Shown here: piece after piece, positions 13,323-63,195 of the stretch | Numbering within the stretch: position 1 is the first letter of the stretch | Layout of the letters: every line of letters starts with the position of its first letter | Origin: an uncultured Candidatus Actinomarina sp. | GTDB taxonomy: Bacteria; Actinomycetota; Acidimicrobiia; Actinomarinales; Actinomarinaceae | Length of the DNA: 64,000 nucleotides | Assembly: GCA_902596545.1 (NCBI GenBank) | Contig: CACJUH010000004.1 | Location: 25,170 to 89,169 of the forward strand | Direction: 5' to 3' | Position numbers and translations under genes: made by a program | Notes under the pieces: generated by a model | Told to the model about the DNA's origin: nothing | Database searches by the model: none | The model's input: only the letters and a program-made list of their open reading frames with translations

Positions 13323-13903
13323 ATGAAACTAAATTGTCTTTCAATTGTCTTGTTTTTTCTGTATGAAAAATATTCTTTATTACAAATAGTACATACATTC
13401 GTATCCTCTAAATTTATATTATTTTCAAATGCAAATTGTTTAATATTTTTTGTTAAATCTAGATAATATTTATCGTTAACTTTATTGACTGAATTGTTAA
13501 ATGTCTTTAGAAACTCAACTCCAACTTCGTAACAACATTTTCTAGCATGTGGCCCTATTGAAATTTTTAAACTAGATATTTCATGTATATCTAAACTTTT
13601 TTCAAATATAGATTTTTCTAAACCACGCCAGCCAGCATGGGTTGCAGAAACTCCTTTGCTTGATTCCATTAGAAGAGGAACACAATCAGCAGTTTTTACA
13701 ACCAATGGTAATTTGGTTTTATTTGTGTAAATACCATCACATTTGTAAGAAATATTCGAGTCAGCAAATGCAATTTCAGATGAATGGGTTTGATCCATTG
13801 TTGCAACTTGGTTTTGAAAACCAATGGTTTCTAATACTTCTTCTAAACTCCCATCATTTGCCGATGAGAAGAAAGCATTATTTAAATTTTGAGAGCGAAT
13901 CAT
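13313..13903 (-). CDS. pgeF: Peptidoglycan editing factor PgeF (YfiH/laccase-like)
   Basis: QTHS, TADCVP, HAGWRG, IGP...CCYEVG, CTIC...YFSYR. Confidence 0.93.
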
Positions 13904-14967
13904 CCCTTAATGAAATCAGGAAGACCGTCACCTCCATTATCAGTTTGCTCTGAATCATTCTTTAATCTTCTATTTGGTCTTGGACCAAATCCAGCAGCAA
14001 CAACTGTAACTTCTACAGCATCACCAAGAGATTCATCTACAATGTGACCGAAGATGATTTCAGCGTTGTCATCAGCACGTTCTGTAATAACTCTTGCTGC
14101 TTCATCAACTTCTTGAAGTTTTAGATCTGCAGAGCCTGTAATAGTTATTAATACACCCTCTGCTCCGTCCATATTTGCTTCGAGTAGTGGTGAAGATATG
14201 GCAGCTTGTGCAGCATTTGGTGCACGTTGCTCACCAGTTGATCTTCCTATTCCCAGTACGGCACTGCCTGCATCTTTCAAAATAGTTTTTACATCTGCAA
14301 AGTCAACATTAATCACACCTGGTTGGGTAATTAATCCTGAAATTCCCTTTACACCATTTGATAAAATCTCATCTGATTTTAAATAGGCTTCATTTACTTT
14401 TACATTGTTATCACTAATTTGTAGAAGTCTATCATTAGGTATAACTATCAAAGTATCAAGCACATCTCTTAGAGCTTGAACGCCTTCTTCTGCTTGAACA
14501 GATCTCCTTCTTCCTTCAAAGCCAAAAGGTCTAGTAACTACACCTACAGTCAAAGCGCCCAACTCATGAGCTATTTCAGCAATAACTGGTGAAGCACCTG
14601 TTCCAGTACCACCGCCTTCACCTGCTGTAATAAATACCATGTCTGATCCTTTTAATGCTTCTTTAATTAAATCTGCAGAATCTAATGCTGCTTGTCTTCC
14701 TACTTCTGGGTTAGCACCAGCACCAAGTCCTCTTGTTGTTTTTCTACCGAGGTCTAATTTAACGTCAGCCTTTGAACCAAGTAAACTTTGAGCATCTGTA
14801 TTTGCAGCAATAAAATCTACACCCTTAATGCCCATCTTGATCATCCTATTAACAGCATTGGTTCCTCCACCACCAACACCGACAACTTTTATAACAGCTG
14901 TATAATTTCTAGGTCTCATATTTAGATTCACTCCCTTTTGATTTGTTTTTTTACTTCTTTGTGCCAT
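13900..14967 (-). CDS. ftsZ: Cell division protein FtsZ
   Basis: [21 protein letters not shown] tubulin signature, NVDFADV, C-terminal LPDF; ATG 14967 preceded by GGAG (alternative ATG 14919). Confidence 0.98.
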
Positions 14968-14989
14968 AAAATCTCCAATTAATGAATCT

Positions 14990-14998
14990 AGATTATCA
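14990..14998 (-). promoter_or_regulatory. Candidate extended -10 promoter (TGA-TAATCT) for ftsZ
   Basis: TGnTAnnnT in the AT-rich ftsQ-ftsZ gap, about 23 nt before ATG 14967. Confidence 0.4.
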
Positions 14999-15056
14999 TC
15001 ATATATAAATATAAACAATAAATTTTTAGTTTTTTATCTATATCTATACTTTAGGT

Positions 15057-25326: not shown

Positions 25327-25643
25327 TTTCCAAAACCCAAAACAATTACAGGATTTGAATCTTCATTTAATTTGTAGGGTCTTACTAAATCAAAATTTTT
25401 CTTGTGAATATCTAATCTTTTAAAATTAATTTCCTTTGAAAGTTTTTCAATATTTCCAATTGAAAATTCTTCAGTATGTTTTAAATGAACCTTAGACTCT
25501 TCAATTTGAAGTATTACAATTTCATTATTAATTTGCTCTAAATCACTAGATAATTCATTAATTTTTAAGTTGAAATACAAATCTGAAAGCATTGACAAAA
25601 TAAAAACACTTGCCATTAGTAACATAATATTTCTAAATTTCAT
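25323..25643 (-). CDS. ftsL: Probable FtsL-like septal protein
   Basis: TM plus leucine-zipper coiled coil; position between rsmH and ftsI. Confidence 0.7.
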   Translation of the reverse strand: MKFRNIMLLMASVFILSMLSDLYFNLKINELSSDLEQINNEIVILQIEESKVHLKHTEEFSIGNIEKLSKEINFKRLDIHKKNFDLVRPYKLNEDSNPVIVLGFGK

Positions 25644-26554
25644 ATTTTCACCACATATCTCAAAGTAGCTGAAGCTGATCTTGAATTTTTATTGATTTCA
25701 TCATCTGATGGAAATAATTTTTTATTCTTACCAAATTTAAATTTTTGAATCGTATCACAATTGCAAATTGGAATTCTCGGATTGCAAACACATGTAATAG
25801 TTAAATCATTAAAAATATCTTTAACTATTTTGTCTTCAAGAGAGTGATAGGTAAGACAAACAATTACACCACCCGGTTTAATAAAGTTTTTAATTTTATT
25901 TATCGATAAAGTAATCTCCTCAAGTTCATTATTTACATAAATTCTTATTGCTTGAAAACATCTTTTTATTGTCTGATTTATATATTTTGGATTTTGTTTT
26001 CCTAATACATTTTTTAAAACTTTAGAAAAATCTTCGGTCGATTTTAATGGTCTTGAGTTAGAAATTGCTTTTGCTATTTTACGAGAATTTTTTTCACCAG
26101 AATATTTATACAAAATATTTGCAATATCTTCTTCTTCAAATTGATTTAATACTTCATCTGCAGTAATTCTGTCATCTTGGTTCATTCTCATGTCTAGTGG
26201 TCCCTGATTCAAATATGAAAATCCTCTATCTGGGTTATCAATTTGATGTGAGGAAATACCAAAGTCATAGAAAACTCCTGATATATCCAAAATATTTTTA
26301 ATAGATAATACATCAGTAATGTTTGAAAATTTTATATTTAAGACTTCATCAGAGGAATTCTTAACTGCTTCTAAATCTCTATCTATTCCAATAAATTTAA
26401 GATGGCTGTTCTTTTGTTTTAAGTAGTTAAAATGCGAACCAAAACCGTAAGTAGCATCTACAAATATTCCTGCAGGTGAATTAGATACTATTTCATTAAC
26501 TTCGGATATCATTACTCCGTCATGCTTTAAGTACCCTACCCTGTTGTTATTCAT
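25640..26554 (-). CDS. rsmH: 16S rRNA m4C1402 methyltransferase RsmH (MraW)
   Basis: VDATYGFGSH, DFGISSHQ, RGFS, PLDMRM, FQAIRIYVNNEL, YHSLED, NSRSASA. Confidence 0.96.
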   Translation of the reverse strand: MNNNRVGYLKHDGVMISEVNEIVSNSPAGIFVDATYGFGSHFNYLKQKNSHLKFIGIDRDLEAVKNSSDEVLNIKFSNITDVLSIKNILDISGVFYDFGISSHQIDNPDRGFSYLNQGPLDMRMNQDDRITADEVLNQFEEEDIANILYKYSGEKNSRKIAKAISNSRPLKSTEDFSKVLKNVLGKQNPKYINQTIKRCFQAIRIYVNNELEEITLSINKIKNFIKPGGVIVCLTYHSLEDKIVKDIFNDLTITCVCNPRIPICNCDTIQKFKFGKNKKLFPSDDEINKNSRSASATLRYVVKI

Positions 26555-26556
26555 AC

Positions 26557-26633
26557 CCAGCTCTCTAGCACTGGCACCAATTGGAAAGTTGGGCGGAGTA
26601 AGGGTGTTCCAATTTAGTTGTCTAGAGAGCTGG
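26557..26633 (-). ncRNA. Structured cis-regulatory hairpin, probable mraW RNA motif
   Basis: Perfect 12-bp outer stem (26557-26568/26622-26633), 8-bp inner stem (26579-26586/26607-26614), 20-nt loop containing UACUCCGCCCAAC; GC-rich in an AT-rich genome; ends 2 nt before the rsmH ATG, where the actinobacterial mraW motif occurs. Family assignment is from memory, not a search. Confidence 0.75.
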
Positions 26634-26641
26634 CTATGAAC

Positions 26642-27067
26642 TTATCCTTTCACTTCGTTTATATTTGCAAAGGCTTTATCAGCTTCGTTTTGAATTTTCT
26701 TCCAACTTCTAGTTGACCAAACTTCCACAACGGGACCTGAACCAGTTACAGTAACTTCTTCATTGATATCAATTCCGCTATATACTCGCAAGTTTTCAGG
26801 TATTTGCACCCTTCCTGCTGAGTCTATTTTTACATCAATAGCACCACTAAATAAAGCCCTTCTTAATTGCCTTGATGTTCTGTCTGTGGATGGAAGTGAA
26901 GCCATTTTTATTGCTTCTTCTTCCCAATTTGATTTAGTTAGTATTTGGAGACAGTTGTCTTGTCCCTTGGTGATCACACAGCCCTGTTGAAGCTCGTCTC
27001 TAAACTTTGATGGTATTACAACCCTACCTTTAGAGTCCATTGTATGTTGAAACTCACCAAGGAACAC
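26642..27067 (-). CDS. mraZ: Division/cell wall cluster transcriptional repressor MraZ
   Basis: MFLGEFQHTMDSKGRVVIPSKFR, DSAGRVQIP, VEVWS; GTG start with GGCGGAG SD. Confidence 0.97.
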   Translation of the reverse strand: MFLGEFQHTMDSKGRVVIPSKFRDELQQGCVITKGQDNCLQILTKSNWEEEAIKMASLPSTDRTSRQLRRALFSGAIDVKIDSAGRVQIPENLRVYSGIDINEEVTVTGSGPVVEVWSTRSWKKIQNEADKAFANINEVKG

Positions 27068-27090
27068 TTTCTCCGCCTTTCGTGCCTTGA

Positions 27091-27140
27091 ACCACTTTTA
27101 CACATTATATGACACTATCTACCACTTTGCAACACTTTTT
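27091..27140 (-). promoter_or_regulatory. dcw promoter (-35 TTGCAA, 17 bp, -10 TATAAT) overlapped by five 10-bp-phased MraZ-type boxes
   Basis: Minus strand: AAAAAGTGTT GCAAAGTGGT AGATAGTGTC ATATAATGTG TAAAAGTGGT; -35 at 27132-27127, -10 at 27109-27104. Confidence 0.8.
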
Positions 27141-27153
27141 GATAAAAATTTTT

Positions 27154-27666
27154 TTATGCTGAAATTAAATATTCTTCCCATGATGGATCGGGATTTGATC
27201 CAACGATTGTTTTTATCCAAAAAGCTCCAACAGGTTGTTGGGGGTTTCTTTTTAATTTTAACCTAGTATCTGTGAGATCTTTATCAGCTTTAATTAAATT
27301 ACATTTTTTACAACAAGCAACAACATTATCCCAGATATGCTCTCCCCCTTTAGATTTTGGAATAATATGGTCTACTGATTCTGCTTGAGCTCCACAATAT
27401 TGACAAGTGTAAAAATCTCTTATGAAGATATTTTCCTTATTTAAAGCAACTCTCCTTGAATAAGGTGCATTAACAAAATAGTTCAATAATGCAACGTTAG
27501 GTAAAGCAATTCGTTTATTTTCTGATTTAAATATTATTTCAGAATCATTTATGGAATTTATTTTTTTGTTTATTAATAATGATATTGCTCTGTTAAATGG
27601 AACAACAGATAGCGGCTGGTAAGTGGAGTTTAAAATAAGAGTTCTATGGCTACGATATTTTTCCAT
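27154..27666 (-). CDS. HNH endonuclease (McrA-like, common actinobacterial family)
   Basis: LILNSTYQPL, RD..CQYCG...SVDHIIPKSKGG...NVVACCKKCN.IK. Confidence 0.92.
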   Translation of the reverse strand: MEKYRSHRTLILNSTYQPLSVVPFNRAISLLINKKINSINDSEIIFKSENKRIALPNVALLNYFVNAPYSRRVALNKENIFIRDFYTCQYCGAQAESVDHIIPKSKGGEHIWDNVVACCKKCNLIKADKDLTDTRLKLKRNPQQPVGAFWIKTIVGSNPDPSWEEYLISA

Positions 27667-27688
27667 AAATTAACATTAGGTAAAAATT

Positions 27689-28180
27689 TTATGCTTGCAG
27701 TTGTTGACTAAGTACATCATCTTCTACTTTAGTCAATAAATTTAAAAATCTTTCTTTATCTAATTCAAATTTTGATACATCTTCTTTAACTTCTTTTGTA
27801 ATATTATCAATTGTCTCAAAAAATGTAAGTTGTCCATTTTTAAGAGCATCTAACACCTCTTCATCACCTACGGTATAAATTGTGCTTCCATCAGAAACTA
27901 ATTTAACTTCAGACAAATGTTGGGTCAAATCACCATTTTTTGATAAGTATCTCCAAGCTCTTCTTACTCTTTGAATACTCATTCCATTATCAAGCAAAGT
28001 TTTGATTACTCTTAATGCAACAATGTCTCTGAAAGAATACATCTTTGGAACACCGGGTTTTCCATTTGATGATTGTATTGATGGATTAACAAGGTTCACT
28101 TTGTCCCAATATCTTAATTGGTGAGATGTGCATCCTGATAAATAACAAGCTTGCTTAGATGTAAATGCATCTTTTTTCAA
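27689..28180 (-). CDS. MerR family transcriptional regulator (Rv1830/McdR-like)
   Basis: QLRYWDK...PSI...YSFRDIVALRVIKTLLDNGMSIQRVR...LVSDGSTIY; TTG start with AGGAG SD. Confidence 0.88.
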   Translation of the reverse strand: MKKDAFTSKQACYLSGCTSHQLRYWDKVNLVNPSIQSSNGKPGVPKMYSFRDIVALRVIKTLLDNGMSIQRVRRAWRYLSKNGDLTQHLSEVKLVSDGSTIYTVGDEEVLDALKNGQLTFFETIDNITKEVKEDVSKFELDKERFLNLLTKVEDDVLSQQLQA

Positions 28181-28229
28181 AACCTTACTCCTATAAAAAA
28201 TCGATGTATATTTAATTTAATTTAAAGAT

Positions 28230-28577
28230 TTAATTTTGTCTAGAGTTATCTTTGTTTCTTAAAATTTTATATACCTGTTTAAAATTCCATTCAGAAATAT
28301 TTTCAGCTCTTAAAAGTGCTCTGGTATTGGATACAAAAATATAAGCAGACAATGCCATAACAACAAAACCAGCTAAAGCTAAAGTTGGTTGAATGATATA
28401 GGTACTAAACATAGTTAAAAGGCCAATACAAAAAATAAAAAATGAAACAACAGCTCTTGTTCTTGTGTATTTGGAAAGAGTTGATTCTTTTACTGTGTTC
28501 GCAAGTTCAGGATCTTCTTTCAAAAGTTCTTGCTCAATTTGGTTTAATATTTCTTGTTCTTTTTTGTTTAATGCCAT
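28230..28577 (-). CDS. DUF3040 domain membrane protein
   Basis: MALNKKEQEILNQIEQELLKEDPELA plus two TMs; typical neighbour upstream of actinobacterial mraZ. Confidence 0.85.
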   Translation of the reverse strand: MALNKKEQEILNQIEQELLKEDPELANTVKESTLSKYTRTRAVVSFFIFCIGLLTMFSTYIIQPTLALAGFVVMALSAYIFVSNTRALLRAENISEWNFKQVYKILRNKDNSRQN

Positions 28578-52483: not shown

Positions 52484-52506
52484 TATATGCAATTAAAATA
52501 AGAAAT

Positions 52507-52834
52507 GTGAGATGGATAATCGCGATTTATCGAGGAAAGTCCGGACTCCGTAGAGCATAGAGCTGGGTAACTCCCAGGCAAGTAATTGACGGAAAGTGCA
52601 ACAGAAAATATACCGCTTGTTTAGGCAAGTAAGGGTGAAAAGGTGGTGTAAGAGACCACCAGTAGTTTAAGTAATTAAACTAGCTTGCAAACCCCTCTAG
52701 GAGCAATACTAAGAAGCAATTAATCTGCTCGGTTAATAATTGCGGGTAAGTAGCTAGATATATTTGGTAACAAATATACAAGATGGATGATTATCATGCG
52801 CATTGCGTATACAGAATCCGGCTTATAGTTTCAC
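52507..52834 (+). ncRNA. rnpB: RNase P RNA (bacterial, type A-like)
   Basis: GAGGAAAGTCCGG, AGTGCAACAGAAA, AGGGTGAAAAGGTGGTGTAAGAG, GGAGCAA, ACAGAATCCGGCTTA; P1 pairing GTGAGAT/GTTTCAC; TAAAAT -10 at 52494-52499. Confidence 0.96.
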
Positions 52835-52841
52835 AAAACTC

Positions 52842-59634: not shown

Positions 59635-60780
59635 ATGCTTTATGCACTTTTAACTTCAATGATATTAAATTTTTCAATCTCACCAGATATGAGTCATGAA
59701 AACGAAAATCATTACACTAAAAATAAAATTGATAATTACGACATAATTACTATTTCTCAATCTGGAAGTCTTTTCTATAGTGTTACAAATCAAATTTTAG
59801 AAAGCGTAGATAATTTAAATACAAATGTTACTTTTATTGGACGAGCAAATGTTGGACTTGAGTCAACAACATTTGCAAATAATGAAATTAATTTAACTAC
59901 ATTAGATAATTTTTTATACAACTTATCGATTAAAACAATTGAATCGTCAGTAGTAGATTACTTTTATGATGAAGAAAGTAGTCAAGCTATTAGAGACAAT
60001 AAAATAGTTATTTCTGAGCTAACTGCAAACAGGTACGAATTAAATGTTGGCGATTATGTAAATCTTGTTGGACTTAATAGTGAAATTATTCCAATTGAAG
60101 TAGGTAAAGTCATTAAGGATTCCAAAATAGGCTGGTTTGAAGGTGTTGTAAATAAAGAGTTAGGTTTTAAATTAGGGATTTATAGAAATATCCAAGCGAT
60201 TATTTGGGATAGTCATATAAATGAAAATTTTTTGATTGAGCTTCATAAAAATATTAACTACAGAAAAGTTAAATTAACTTTTAGAGAAAACAGAGTTAAT
60301 AAAAATTGGGTTCTTCCAACAGCACTAGTAAAAGAAATGTTTGGTGATTTTCAAATCAAAGAAAGAGATGGCGTTTGGATTACTACTCAACCTTCATGGA
60401 GACAGGAAAATATTCAGCAAAAGAGAATGCCCATCATTGGTTTAACAGTTTGCCATAGACTTATGTGGGAACCTCTAGAAGGTGCTTTAAATCAAATTCT
60501 TGCAGAAGGCTTAGAAGATACTTTATCGATAGAAGAATTTAGAACCTCTGGAGGTTGTTATGCTCCAAGGAGAATCAACAGGTTTGATGCAGGAGGTAGT
60601 ATTTCAAGGCATGCTTGGGGAATAGCAATTGATATAAATACAAAATCTGGTTATCCGCCTAGAGTAGTTGAAATATTTAATGACTGGGGATTTGCCTGGG
60701 GAGGTACATGGACATCTCCCGATGAGATGCATTTTGAACTAAGAGATTTATCAGCCAGTGTTTCTAAGACCAGCGGCTAA
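59635..60780 (+). CDS. M15 family Zn peptidase with an N-terminal MacB-periplasmic-like domain
   Basis: SRHAWGIAIDIN (SxHxxxxAxD), WGGTW, DEMHFE; N-terminal VISELTA...LNVGD.V resembles MacB/FtsX loops. Confidence 0.8.
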   Translation: MLYALLTSMILNFSISPDMSHENENHYTKNKIDNYDIITISQSGSLFYSVTNQILESVDNLNTNVTFIGRANVGLESTTFANNEINLTTLDNFLYNLSIKTIESSVVDYFYDEESSQAIRDNKIVISELTANRYELNVGDYVNLVGLNSEIIPIEVGKVIKDSKIGWFEGVVNKELGFKLGIYRNIQAIIWDSHINENFLIELHKNINYRKVKLTFRENRVNKNWVLPTALVKEMFGDFQIKERDGVWITTQPSWRQENIQQKRMPIIGLTVCHRLMWEPLEGALNQILAEGLEDTLSIEEFRTSGGCYAPRRINRFDAGGSISRHAWGIAIDINTKSGYPPRVVEIFNDWGFAWGGTWTSPDEMHFELRDLSASVSKTSG

Positions 60781-63195
60781 ACCATTAATAGATAATAACA
60801 AAGCATTATTTTCAAACTGACTTAACTCTTTTTTTCTCATTTTTTTCATAAGAGAAACTTGAATCAAAGACAGAGGATCAAGATAGGCATTTCTTATATT
60901 TAGAGTATTTTTTAGAACTTTATTGTCATTTAAAAGTTCAGAATTTTGTTTTATTTGTTTAATCATTTTTATAACTAATTTTGACTCAATGAATATATCT
61001 TCATAAATATCTTGATATTCCTCCCCTACTAGTTCATCAACGTATAATTTAGAAATTTTTAAATCAGATTTAAATACAGTCATCTCAATATTGCTAATTA
61101 GGTTTTGAAAAAAGTTAGATGTTTCATAAATACGTCTAACTTTCTGTATTCCATATTTATTAATAAGACTTTCAAATGCTGTTCCAGCACCATACCAGCC
61201 TGTTAGTGTACTGCGTGTTTGGGCCCAGCCAAATACCCACGGAATAGCTCTGTAGTTATCTAATGAAGTAATTTTATTAGATCTTTTTACAGGTCTGGAG
61301 CCGATATTTAATGTTGATAGTAAGTTTACAGGTGTAACATTCTCAAAATAGTTTATGAGATTATTCTTATCTATAAGACTTCTGTATTTTGAATATGAAT
61401 TATGTGATAACTCTTCAAATATATTTTCATATTTCAATTTTGATTCAAGCGTGCTTGAAGAAGTATTAATAAATGCTGCAGAACCTAATTTAAGATTTTC
61501 AAAAGCTAAATAGTGAGTAGAGTATTTATCTGATATAACTTCTCCTTGTTCTGTATATCTAATTTGCGAAGAAATAGTTCCTTTTGGTTGGGACATTATT
61601 GAATCATATGTTGGACCACCACCCCTACTTATTGTGCCACCCCTACCATGAAAAAAATTAATATTAATATTATTTTTCTTAGCTATATTAAATAGCGAAA
61701 TCTGGGCTTTATAAACATTCCATTGTGATGCGATTATCCCACCATCTTTGTTTGAGTCTGAGTAGCCAAGCATAACTTCTTGGTTATTCCTTTTTAAAGT
61801 CTTTATAAATTTCTTGTATTTTTTATTTTTTAGCATTTCATTAATTATCAAATGTGATGATTGTAATTCTTCTATTTCTTCAATTAGAGGTGTTAGTGAT
61901 GGAATATTTTTATCTGGAATCAATGAACTGCATAAATTAAATAAATTTAACAAATCTTGGTGAGATTTAGTCATGGATAAGATAATTGAATTGAATACCT
62001 TCTGGCCATAAATATTCTGTAGTTCAGGTATTTCTTTAATTAAATTAATGAAGTCTTTATATATTTTTCCTTTTTTTGAATTAATAACTGATGAATTTTG
62101 ACGAATATCTAAAGCAACACCATGAAATTCAAATTGTTTTACATAATCAACAAAATCATCTAATTTAGATATTCGAAAATTCTTTCCAAAGACCTCATTA
62201 ACACTATTTTGGAAAATTTCCATATCTTCTAAAAATTCATTAAAAGAGTTATAGCCTTTATTATTTTGCTGAAAGTTTTCTAATCTGTGAAAAACTAAAG
62301 AAAGAAATATTCTAAATGGTTCGTCGAAATTTACTTTAGAGTAATGATCAAATTCTTTTTTCAATAAAATTGAATAATTTTTGATTCTACTCTCTAAAAT
62401 ATCAGGGCAATAAACAAAATTTGTTGAAACACTGAAATCATCTGATAATTCGATGATTTTTTCTTTATAAATACTGATTATTTGATTTGAGTATATCTTT
62501 AATGCCTCTTTTGTAATTTTTGTTGTTACAAATGGGTTACCATCTTTATCTGCTCCAACCCAGGAGCCGAAACTAATGTTGAAATTAGAGCTACCCTTAA
62601 TAATGTCTGGATCTGAAATAAGATCGTTATAAACGTTTCTGTATAAAATGTCTAAATAGAAAATTAATGACTTAACTTCATCTAATGGATTGGGCTTTGA
62701 AGACCTTGTATCCCTTGTGTACCAAAGTTGTGCAATCAATCCGTTTATCTCTTCCATGTTGTCCGAATCATTTTTTTCAATAATTTCACCAATTTTATAT
62801 ATTTTTTTTAATGTTGACTGTCTTGAGCTTTCAGTAGGGTGTGCTGTAAAAACAGGAGTAAAAGTTAGATGTTTTTTATCAGAGGGTTTAATTTTAATTT
62901 TTATATTTTCAAGAAAATGTTCACGAAAAACCTGCTCAGCAATATTTGATAAATAGAAAAATATTGTAAATGATTTAGTTATTACATATATTTCTTCTGG
63001 CTTGAGATGTTTAAGAAGATTGAAAATATCGTTCAGATATTTCTCATTTTGACTTGCTCTATATTTTTTTGATTTTTGACGAATCTCTTCAACTATTTTG
63101 TAATACTTAACACCTGCTTGTTGCTTAATAACATGTCCTAATTCATTGCCAAGAAGTTTTATAGTATTAGGAAGTGTGTCAAATTGAACAGGTAT
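60751..63195 (-). CDS. ppc: Phosphoenolpyruvate carboxylase (814 codons from proposed AUA start)
   Basis: Frame open from 63216 to 60751; LSNIAEQ, FTAHPTE, SWVGADKDGNP, MLGYSDSNKDGG, FHGRGGTISRGG, RAIPWVFGWAQ, AAGLRNTG. Confidence 0.93.
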   Translation of the reverse strand: MPVQFDTLPNTIKLLGNELGHVIKQQAGVKYYKIVEEIRQKSKKYRASQNEKYLNDIFNLLKHLKPEEIYVITKSFTIFFYLSNIAEQVFREHFLENIKIKIKPSDKKHLTFTPVFTAHPTESSRQSTLKKIYKIGEIIEKNDSDNMEEINGLIAQLWYTRDTRSSKPNPLDEVKSLIFYLDILYRNVYNDLISDPDIIKGSSNFNISFGSWVGADKDGNPFVTTKITKEALKIYSNQIISIYKEKIIELSDDFSVSTNFVYCPDILESRIKNYSILLKKEFDHYSKVNFDEPFRIFLSLVFHRLENFQQNNKGYNSFNEFLEDMEIFQNSVNEVFGKNFRISKLDDFVDYVKQFEFHGVALDIRQNSSVINSKKGKIYKDFINLIKEIPELQNIYGQKVFNSIILSMTKSHQDLLNLFNLCSSLIPDKNIPSLTPLIEEIEELQSSHLIINEMLKNKKYKKFIKTLKRNNQEVMLGYSDSNKDGGIIASQWNVYKAQISLFNIAKKNNININFFHGRGGTISRGGGPTYDSIMSQPKGTISSQIRYTEQGEVISDKYSTHYLAFENLKLGSAAFINTSSSTLESKLKYENIFEELSHNSYSKYRSLIDKNNLINYFENVTPVNLLSTLNIGSRPVKRSNKITSLDNYRAIPWVFGWAQTRSTLTGWYGAGTAFESLINKYGIQKVRRIYETSNFFQNLISNIEMTVFKSDLKISKLYVDELVGEEYQDIYEDIFIESKLVIKMIKQIKQNSELLNDNKVLKNTLNIRNAYLDPLSLIQVSLMKKMRKKELSQFENNALLLSINGLAAGLRNTG

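Follow-up and report, generated by a model that had tools for sequence, protein, structure and literature searches.

A conserved hairpin between mraZ and rsmH of Acidimicrobiia and its complementarity to the mraZ start region in Actinomarinales

The genes mraZ and rsmH (mraW) form the head of a division and cell-wall gene cluster. In an uncultured Candidatus Actinomarina sp. the spacer between both genes is occupied by a long RNA hairpin, and a segment around its apical loop is complementary to the Shine-Dalgarno-like sequence and the start codon of mraZ, which are located upstream on the same RNA. This raises the question whether the hairpin reaches back over the mraZ coding sequence and shuts off translation of the repressor, as the original prediction proposed, and whether such a pairing is the reason for the conservation of the loop. 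The question was addressed with the 64,000-nucleotide stretch of DNA from which the prediction had been derived (contig CACJUH010000004.1, positions 25,170 to 89,169; referred to as the window) and with the corresponding loci of related bacteria. All features of the locus are listed in Table 1.

Both genes are well defined, and the MraZ N-terminus MFLGE is identical in all relatives. Metatranscriptome contigs run from the 3' end of mraZ through the hairpin into rsmH, which joins the two genes on one RNA. The contig word depth over mraZ and the 5' half of the hairpin (26533-26643; two metatranscriptomes) is several-fold above that of rsmH, a difference which need not indicate attenuation, since many strains may be pooled where the sequence is invariant; because the contigs were assembled from mixed strains, the depth across the hairpin is not interpretable. 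Upstream of mraZ, AGTG or AATG recurs at constant offset in five consecutive 10-nt blocks, and this array over the mraZ promoter resembles an MraZ operator, a role which we assume from the MraZ repeat sites known from publications. Relatives carry GTGGGG-type repeats at the matching position. The sequence AAAGUGU at the start codon was considered as an extra MraZ box and rejected, since it is shifted by 2 nt relative to the period-10 register and the spacer is of variable length. Apart from these elements, the window contains a class A RNase P RNA (RF00010, 273.6 bits) at 52504-52841 on the + strand, which is its sole Rfam match above threshold.

Table 1. Features of the mraZ-rsmH locus and of the segments discussed in the text (positions refer to the window)
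Feature	Position	Strand	Remarks
HNH gene	27666-27154	−	First in gene order read along the − strand
Period-10 AGTG/AATG boxes, candidate MraZ operator	27091..27140	−	Overlap the TATAAT box; read from the sequence
TATAAT -10 box	27109-27104	−	Within the HNH-mraZ spacer
mraZ leader/start region with three complementary blocks	27061..27086	−	RNAduplex energies (see text)
mraZ CDS	27067 (GTG) to 26642	−	141 aa; ORF and Pfam PF02381, E 5e-31, 106.9 bits
Site inside the mraZ CDS complementary to the mraZ start region	26947..26972	−	-22.4 kcal/mol
mraZ-rsmH spacer	Between mraZ stop (26642) and rsmH AUG (26554)	−	87 nt
rsmH leader hairpin	26549..26641	−	-39.3 kcal/mol, z -6.1 versus shuffles
P1	26641-26635 / 26555-26549	−	Contains the rsmH AUG (26554-26552)
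P2	26633-26622 / 26568-26557	−	Contains the rsmH Shine-Dalgarno-like GAGAG..GG
P3/P4	26620-26607 / 26586-26576	−	Inner stems
Hairpin segment proposed as partner of the mraZ start region	26592..26610	−	GGAACAC-CCUUA-CUCCGCC
Apical loop	26587..26606	−	20 nt, CACCCUUACUCCGCCCAACU; CCCUUACUCCGCCC invariant across Acidimicrobiia
Third block GUGCC, complementary to leader GGCAC	26573..26577	−	Inside the invariant GGUGCCAG; noticed post hoc
3' bulge GCCAG	26575-26571	−	
rsmH (mraW) CDS	26554 (ATG) to 25640	−	304 aa; PF01795, E 5e-80, 269.7 bits

For the comparison, 35 Actinomarina loci and a few distant ones were collected via MraZ, and about 120 more, mostly from Acidimicrobiia, via DNA patterns, of which a first, loose version had returned mostly random GC-rich matches and only eight real ones. 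The element was found between mraZ and rsmH in about 150 loci, mostly of Acidimicrobiia, and is a class-wide element of this group. The Shine-Dalgarno-like purines and the AUG of rsmH are paired in its 3' arm. Its outer stem covaries: in an alignment of 107 sequences (A1), both bases have changed in 13 of the pairs, and the AUG columns are paired; P2, for instance, shows CG/UA at six positions, and in P3 GCCA/UGGC is exchanged for ACCA/UGGU. The loop CCCUNNCUCCGCCC and the 3' string UGGYGCCAG are constant in genomes from about 30% to about 65% G+C. Thus a 14-nt loop and a 5-7-nt bulge are invariant in AT-rich and GC-rich genomes, whereas the stems covary freely. The invariance of the loop columns CCCT..CTCCGCCC is partly built into the DNA search pattern; loop and UGGYGCCAG were, however, also present in loci found by MraZ alone and do therefore not depend solely on that pattern. 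Three loci of Microbacteriaceae (Rhodoluna, Actinomycetes; L046-L048) have a mraZ-rsmH spacer of about 20 nt and no hairpin, so some lineages can do without the element.

In the original prediction the hairpin was addressed as a member of the mraW RNA motif, which was described by Weinberg et al. (2010; PMC2864571) and was still without known function in 2017 (PMC5640933). This assignment was not supported, as the covariance model RF01746 (gathering threshold 50 bits) gave no match on the window and on four other Acidimicrobiia loci. No match was obtained at E<=1 on positions 25500-28500 of the window, none at E<=5 on the loci L036-L038, L018 and L027, and none at the gathering threshold on L104, L272 and L257; true Actinomycetes loci used as positive controls (L308, L296, L343, L299, L297) scored 52-78 bits. 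Both RNAs occupy the same slot directly upstream of rsmH, each is a long hairpin whose apical loop is rich in C and U (ACUUCCCC in mraW, ACUCCGCCC here), and the string CUUCC...GG[CU]GCCAG is common to both (CUUCC..GGUGCCAG in the window). However, GGYGCCAG is a stem strand in RF01746 and half-bulged in the Acidimicrobiia hairpin, the loop comprises about 9 nt in mraW and 14-20 nt here, and the hosts are Actinomycetales in the former and Acidimicrobiia in the latter case. The mraW apical hairpin CCUGgcgcA-CUUCCCC-gcgcCAGG is absent; in its place the window has AAUUGGAA/UUCCAAUU closing the 20-nt loop. The Acidimicrobiia hairpin is hence mraW-like, a relative or analogue of the motif which is not listed in Rfam. 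Some Actinomycetes, namely Williamsia, Prescottella and one Microbacteriaceae-like locus, carry two tandem mraW apical hairpins CCUGACGCACUUCCCCAGCGCCAGG in the mraZ-rsmH spacer (L298, 109-172; L346; L387).

A switch confined to Actinomarinales would be the closest successor of the original prediction. Leader and start of mraZ would pair with the apical half of the hairpin, either by a 6-7 bp contact between Shine-Dalgarno and loop or by a duplex of 16-30 bp after opening of P3/P4; mraZ initiation would be lowered, the mraZ CDS looped out and access to rsmH possibly altered. On the whole we hold this reading to be unlikely, and the evidence which bears on it is given in the following. The two strings and their geometry were described correctly: on the − strand, positions 27077-27061 read GGCGGAGAAAGTGTTCC and 26610-26592 read GGAACACCCTTACTCCGCC, and RNAduplex reproduces the pairing of GGCGGAG-AAA-GUGUUCC with GGAACAC-CCUUA-CUCCGCC as 7+2+7 = 16 pairs at -24.6 kcal/mol, interrupted by a 1x1 A.A mismatch and a 2-nt CC bulge. 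The start-codon side of the duplex, GUGUUCC (27067-27061), consists of the GUG start, a Phe codon and the first base of codon 3. It is also correct that GGAA belongs to the inner stem (26610-26607) of a hairpin with a strong local fold.

The match extends beyond these 16 pairs. The best RNAduplex between leader and apical half reaches -35.5 kcal/mol with three collinear blocks, GGCAC:GUGCC, GGCGGAG:CUCCGCC and GUGUUCC:GGAACAC, by which all G/C blocks of the leader are used (GGCAC, 27086-27082; the Shine-Dalgarno-like GGCGGAG, 27077-27071; and GUGUUCC). The loop-only duplex amounts to -16.6 kcal/mol in the window and to -12 to -13 kcal/mol in most species, and is thus at least equal to the anti-Shine-Dalgarno pairing of the mraZ leader (-11 to -12 kcal/mol). 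The C in GGCGG, which makes the anti-Shine-Dalgarno duplex about 4.5 kcal/mol weaker than for GGAGG (RNAduplex), is invariant despite this cost and despite the AT-rich genome. A metagenome scan for leaders without the C in GGCGGA gave 11 matches, all of them unrelated sequences; no variant turned up in this sample of leaders, whose size is not established. The apical stem of Actinomarinales is weak (-6.7 kcal/mol in the window versus -10 to -18 kcal/mol in relatives). The strength of the loop-only contact, the invariant C, the weak apical stem and the joint transcription of both genes all count in favour of the switch.

The predicted energetics of the whole transcript count against it. When the long-range form is forced on a nested fold of the 599-nt transcript, it loses 9.6 kcal/mol of stability relative to the closed hairpin. 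The long-range pair has a probability of 5e-6 in this scoring, which covers nested structures only. A long duplex formed within the closed hairpin would probably be topologically strained. The predicted local hairpin of the leader, CAAGGCAC/GUGUUCCUUG, is no better than shuffles (z 0.18).

The complementarity had been called unlikely by chance; it is unusual, but less extremely so than this implies. Of the 574 candidate start sites which the window contains, that of mraZ pairs best with the loop (-24.6 versus -18.9 kcal/mol for the next), and only 4 of 2000 dinucleotide shuffles of the leader reached the observed extended duplex (p ~0.002). The match originated, however, from a free search of the 64-kb window, in which sites of equal energy exist. 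When the loop was scanned over both strands (128 kb), the mraZ site ranked third after the trivial antisense. It was surpassed by two sites on the − strand, -27.1 kcal/mol at ~61642-61600 and -24.9 kcal/mol at ~14172-14140, which lie in unrelated coding regions (a 668-aa ORF, 60751-62757, and a 372-aa ORF, 13900-15018) and are probably chance matches. With the mraZ start region as query instead, the loop ranked second, and seven more sites were found at -22.0 to -25.2 kcal/mol, among them the one inside the mraZ CDS (Table 1). This last site is the partner of the start region in the minimum-energy fold of the transcript (RNAfold) and illustrates that near-equal chance partners occur within one mRNA; it reads CACCAAGGGACAA...CUGUCUCC and encodes the conserved ITKGQD motif. 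GC-rich mraZ start regions of other lineages were also tried as a null for the Actinomarina loop and rejected as uninformative, since GC-rich sequence pairs strongly regardless. We estimate the chance of a match to this particular target at ~1e-3 and that of some partner no more than 1 kb from the hairpin at ~0.03.

Every Actinomarinales genome sampled retains the complementarity, including the most distant at 68% MraZ identity. The 9 distinct combinations of loop and start region (MraZ identity 68-100%) all pair at -19.2 to -24.6 kcal/mol (z -3.7 to -5.8), each ranking among the best 1% of windows in its own locus, and the extended complementarity between leader and hairpin is kept in 19 of 19 distinct pairs. 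This persistence speaks for the switch, as does the position of the variation, which sits in the predicted internal loop. The mraZ leader from AGUGGUUCAAGGCACGAAAGGCGGA onward is invariant except for one C>U (L257), of which the resulting GGCAU still pairs with the third block by G.U, and for the variable spacer. Covariation, however, was not found: no compensatory double changes occur between the start region and the loop of Actinomarinales, and all changes are one-sided. In most species GGCGGAG is changed to GGCGGAU or GGCGGAA, by which the G of GGAG is lost without compensation, the spacer to the GUG ranges between 2 and 4 nt, and in the loop GGAACAC becomes GGAAUAC with a G.U pair retained. 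As both partners are nearly invariant and no double change is present, the order counts as a single evolutionary event. Moreover, the leader bases UCAA, which are unpaired in the pairing model, are equally invariant, so another constraint acts on the mraZ leader.

Outside the order the match disappears, although the loop is the same. None of 92 distinct pairs from other Acidimicrobiia falls into the top 5% (median z 0.03), and in the longer test of leader versus hairpin 4 of 95 pairs from other lineages reached p<=0.05, which is the chance rate. A search of 80 loci from outside Actinomarinales for a conserved cis partner of the loop, up to 640 nt to either side, returned only G-rich tracts, namely the hairpin's own 3' arm, the GGxGGxGG coding stretch of rsmH and the MraZ boxes. 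In Actinomycetes an unusually strong mraZ Shine-Dalgarno meets a true mraW loop, ACUUCCCC, which looks like an anti-Shine-Dalgarno sequence. The complementarity between loop and start is mostly explained by this strength; beyond it about 1 kcal/mol is left (p 0.01-0.04, uncorrected for phylogeny). Since the same loop occurs elsewhere without the match and compensatory changes are missing, pairing with mraZ is not the conserved function of the loop, contrary to what had been proposed.

Taken together, the observations are probably best explained by two independently constrained RNA elements on one mraZ-rsmH transcript, of which the hairpin acts as a brake on rsmH and the match to mraZ is incidental. 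The 3' arm of the hairpin, which pairs the rsmH Shine-Dalgarno, the AUG and the first codons, would hold down initiation at rsmH in cis. In Actinomarinales P2 follows the mraZ stop after 6-7 nt and the base of the hairpin after 0-7 nt; as the stem begins at the stop, it is probably opened by ribosomes that terminate on mraZ, and rsmH would thereby be translationally coupled to mraZ. In other Acidimicrobiia a median of 37 nt separates the stop from P2, so coupling is not the whole story. Across the class, the invariant loop CCCUNNCUCCGCCC and the GCCAG bulge are probably recognized by a putative partner acting in trans. The mraZ leader would be a separate element bearing the Shine-Dalgarno-like GAAAGGCGGA. 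A C-rich loop matches purine-rich Shine-Dalgarno regions by its very composition, and the 16 bp and the 5-bp third block occur in Actinomarinales alone. That the loop matches the mraZ start region is most likely a coincidence, or at most an addition peculiar to this lineage. Against this explanation stand the unusual quality of the complementarity and its order-wide persistence, the collinear pairing of the leader G/C blocks with three invariant hairpin blocks together with the retained C in GGCGG, and the fact that coupling by terminating ribosomes fits Actinomarinales only.

The same three blocks invite a stronger version of the switch, which appears rather unlikely to us. The streamlined Actinomarinales would have recruited an ancestral rsmH hairpin as partner of the mraZ leader, giving a reciprocal translational switch between MraZ and RsmH on one mRNA. 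A contact of about 30 bp or of 6-7 bp may close the mraZ ribosome-binding site, and the weak apical stems may be pulled apart, by which access to the rsmH start may be changed.

Alternatively, the hairpin could serve as a coupling or stability structure without any trans partner, the loop being kept by tertiary contacts of the RNA or by a signal at the DNA level. The position of the stem at the mraZ stop of Actinomarinales is in line with this idea, and so is the drop of RNA word depth across the hairpin, an unreliable measure. We nevertheless consider it improbable, because the invariance of loop and bulge amid covarying stems argues for specific recognition and the distance from stop to stem elsewhere is too long for simple coupling.

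Finally, the loop might mimic the RsmH substrate, the 16S rRNA around C1402, so that RsmH would bind its own leader, stabilize the hairpin and repress itself; the element always precedes rsmH, the loop heptamer CCGCCC(G) is that of E. coli 16S 1399-1405 with C1402 in its center (sequence from L280), and autoregulation is reported for other rRNA methyltransferases (ErmC, KsgA), but this is very improbable, since unbiased local alignment places the best matches elsewhere and without significance (shuffle fractions 0.05-0.82), only the 7-mer CCGCCCG is held in common, the true mraW loop ACUUCCCC is unlike this site, and RsmH acts on assembled 30S subunits and not on naked RNA.

Long-distance pairings between the 5' and 3' parts of an mRNA which gate translation exist in the fold-back element of hok mRNA and in the RNA phage MS2. 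The mraZ case is similar to these in that a start region is matched by a remote segment further down the same RNA and that closure of the ribosome-binding site is proposed. It differs in that those systems are based on covariation or mutational evidence, whereas the mraZ case is a sequence match in one order, without covariation. Hairpins which occlude a ribosome-binding site are also a general means by which the translation of adjacent genes is coupled. The rsmH hairpin resembles them with its paired downstream Shine-Dalgarno and AUG and, in Actinomarinales, with a stem starting at the upstream stop; it deviates in the invariant loop and bulge, which suggest an additional specific partner, and in the median distance of 37 nt elsewhere.

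With these results two questions are separated which had been treated as one: the conservation of the loop, which is unrelated to mraZ, and the match to mraZ, which is a trait of a single order. A loop conserved for a reason other than mraZ points to a putative trans-acting partner. The genome of Actinomarina is among the smallest of free-living organisms. If the match to mraZ is not functional, it is a useful warning that, in an AT-rich genome, islands of high GC content are easily taken for complementary partners. If it is functional, this transcript would be a rare bacterial mRNA that closes its first cistron via the structure of the second.
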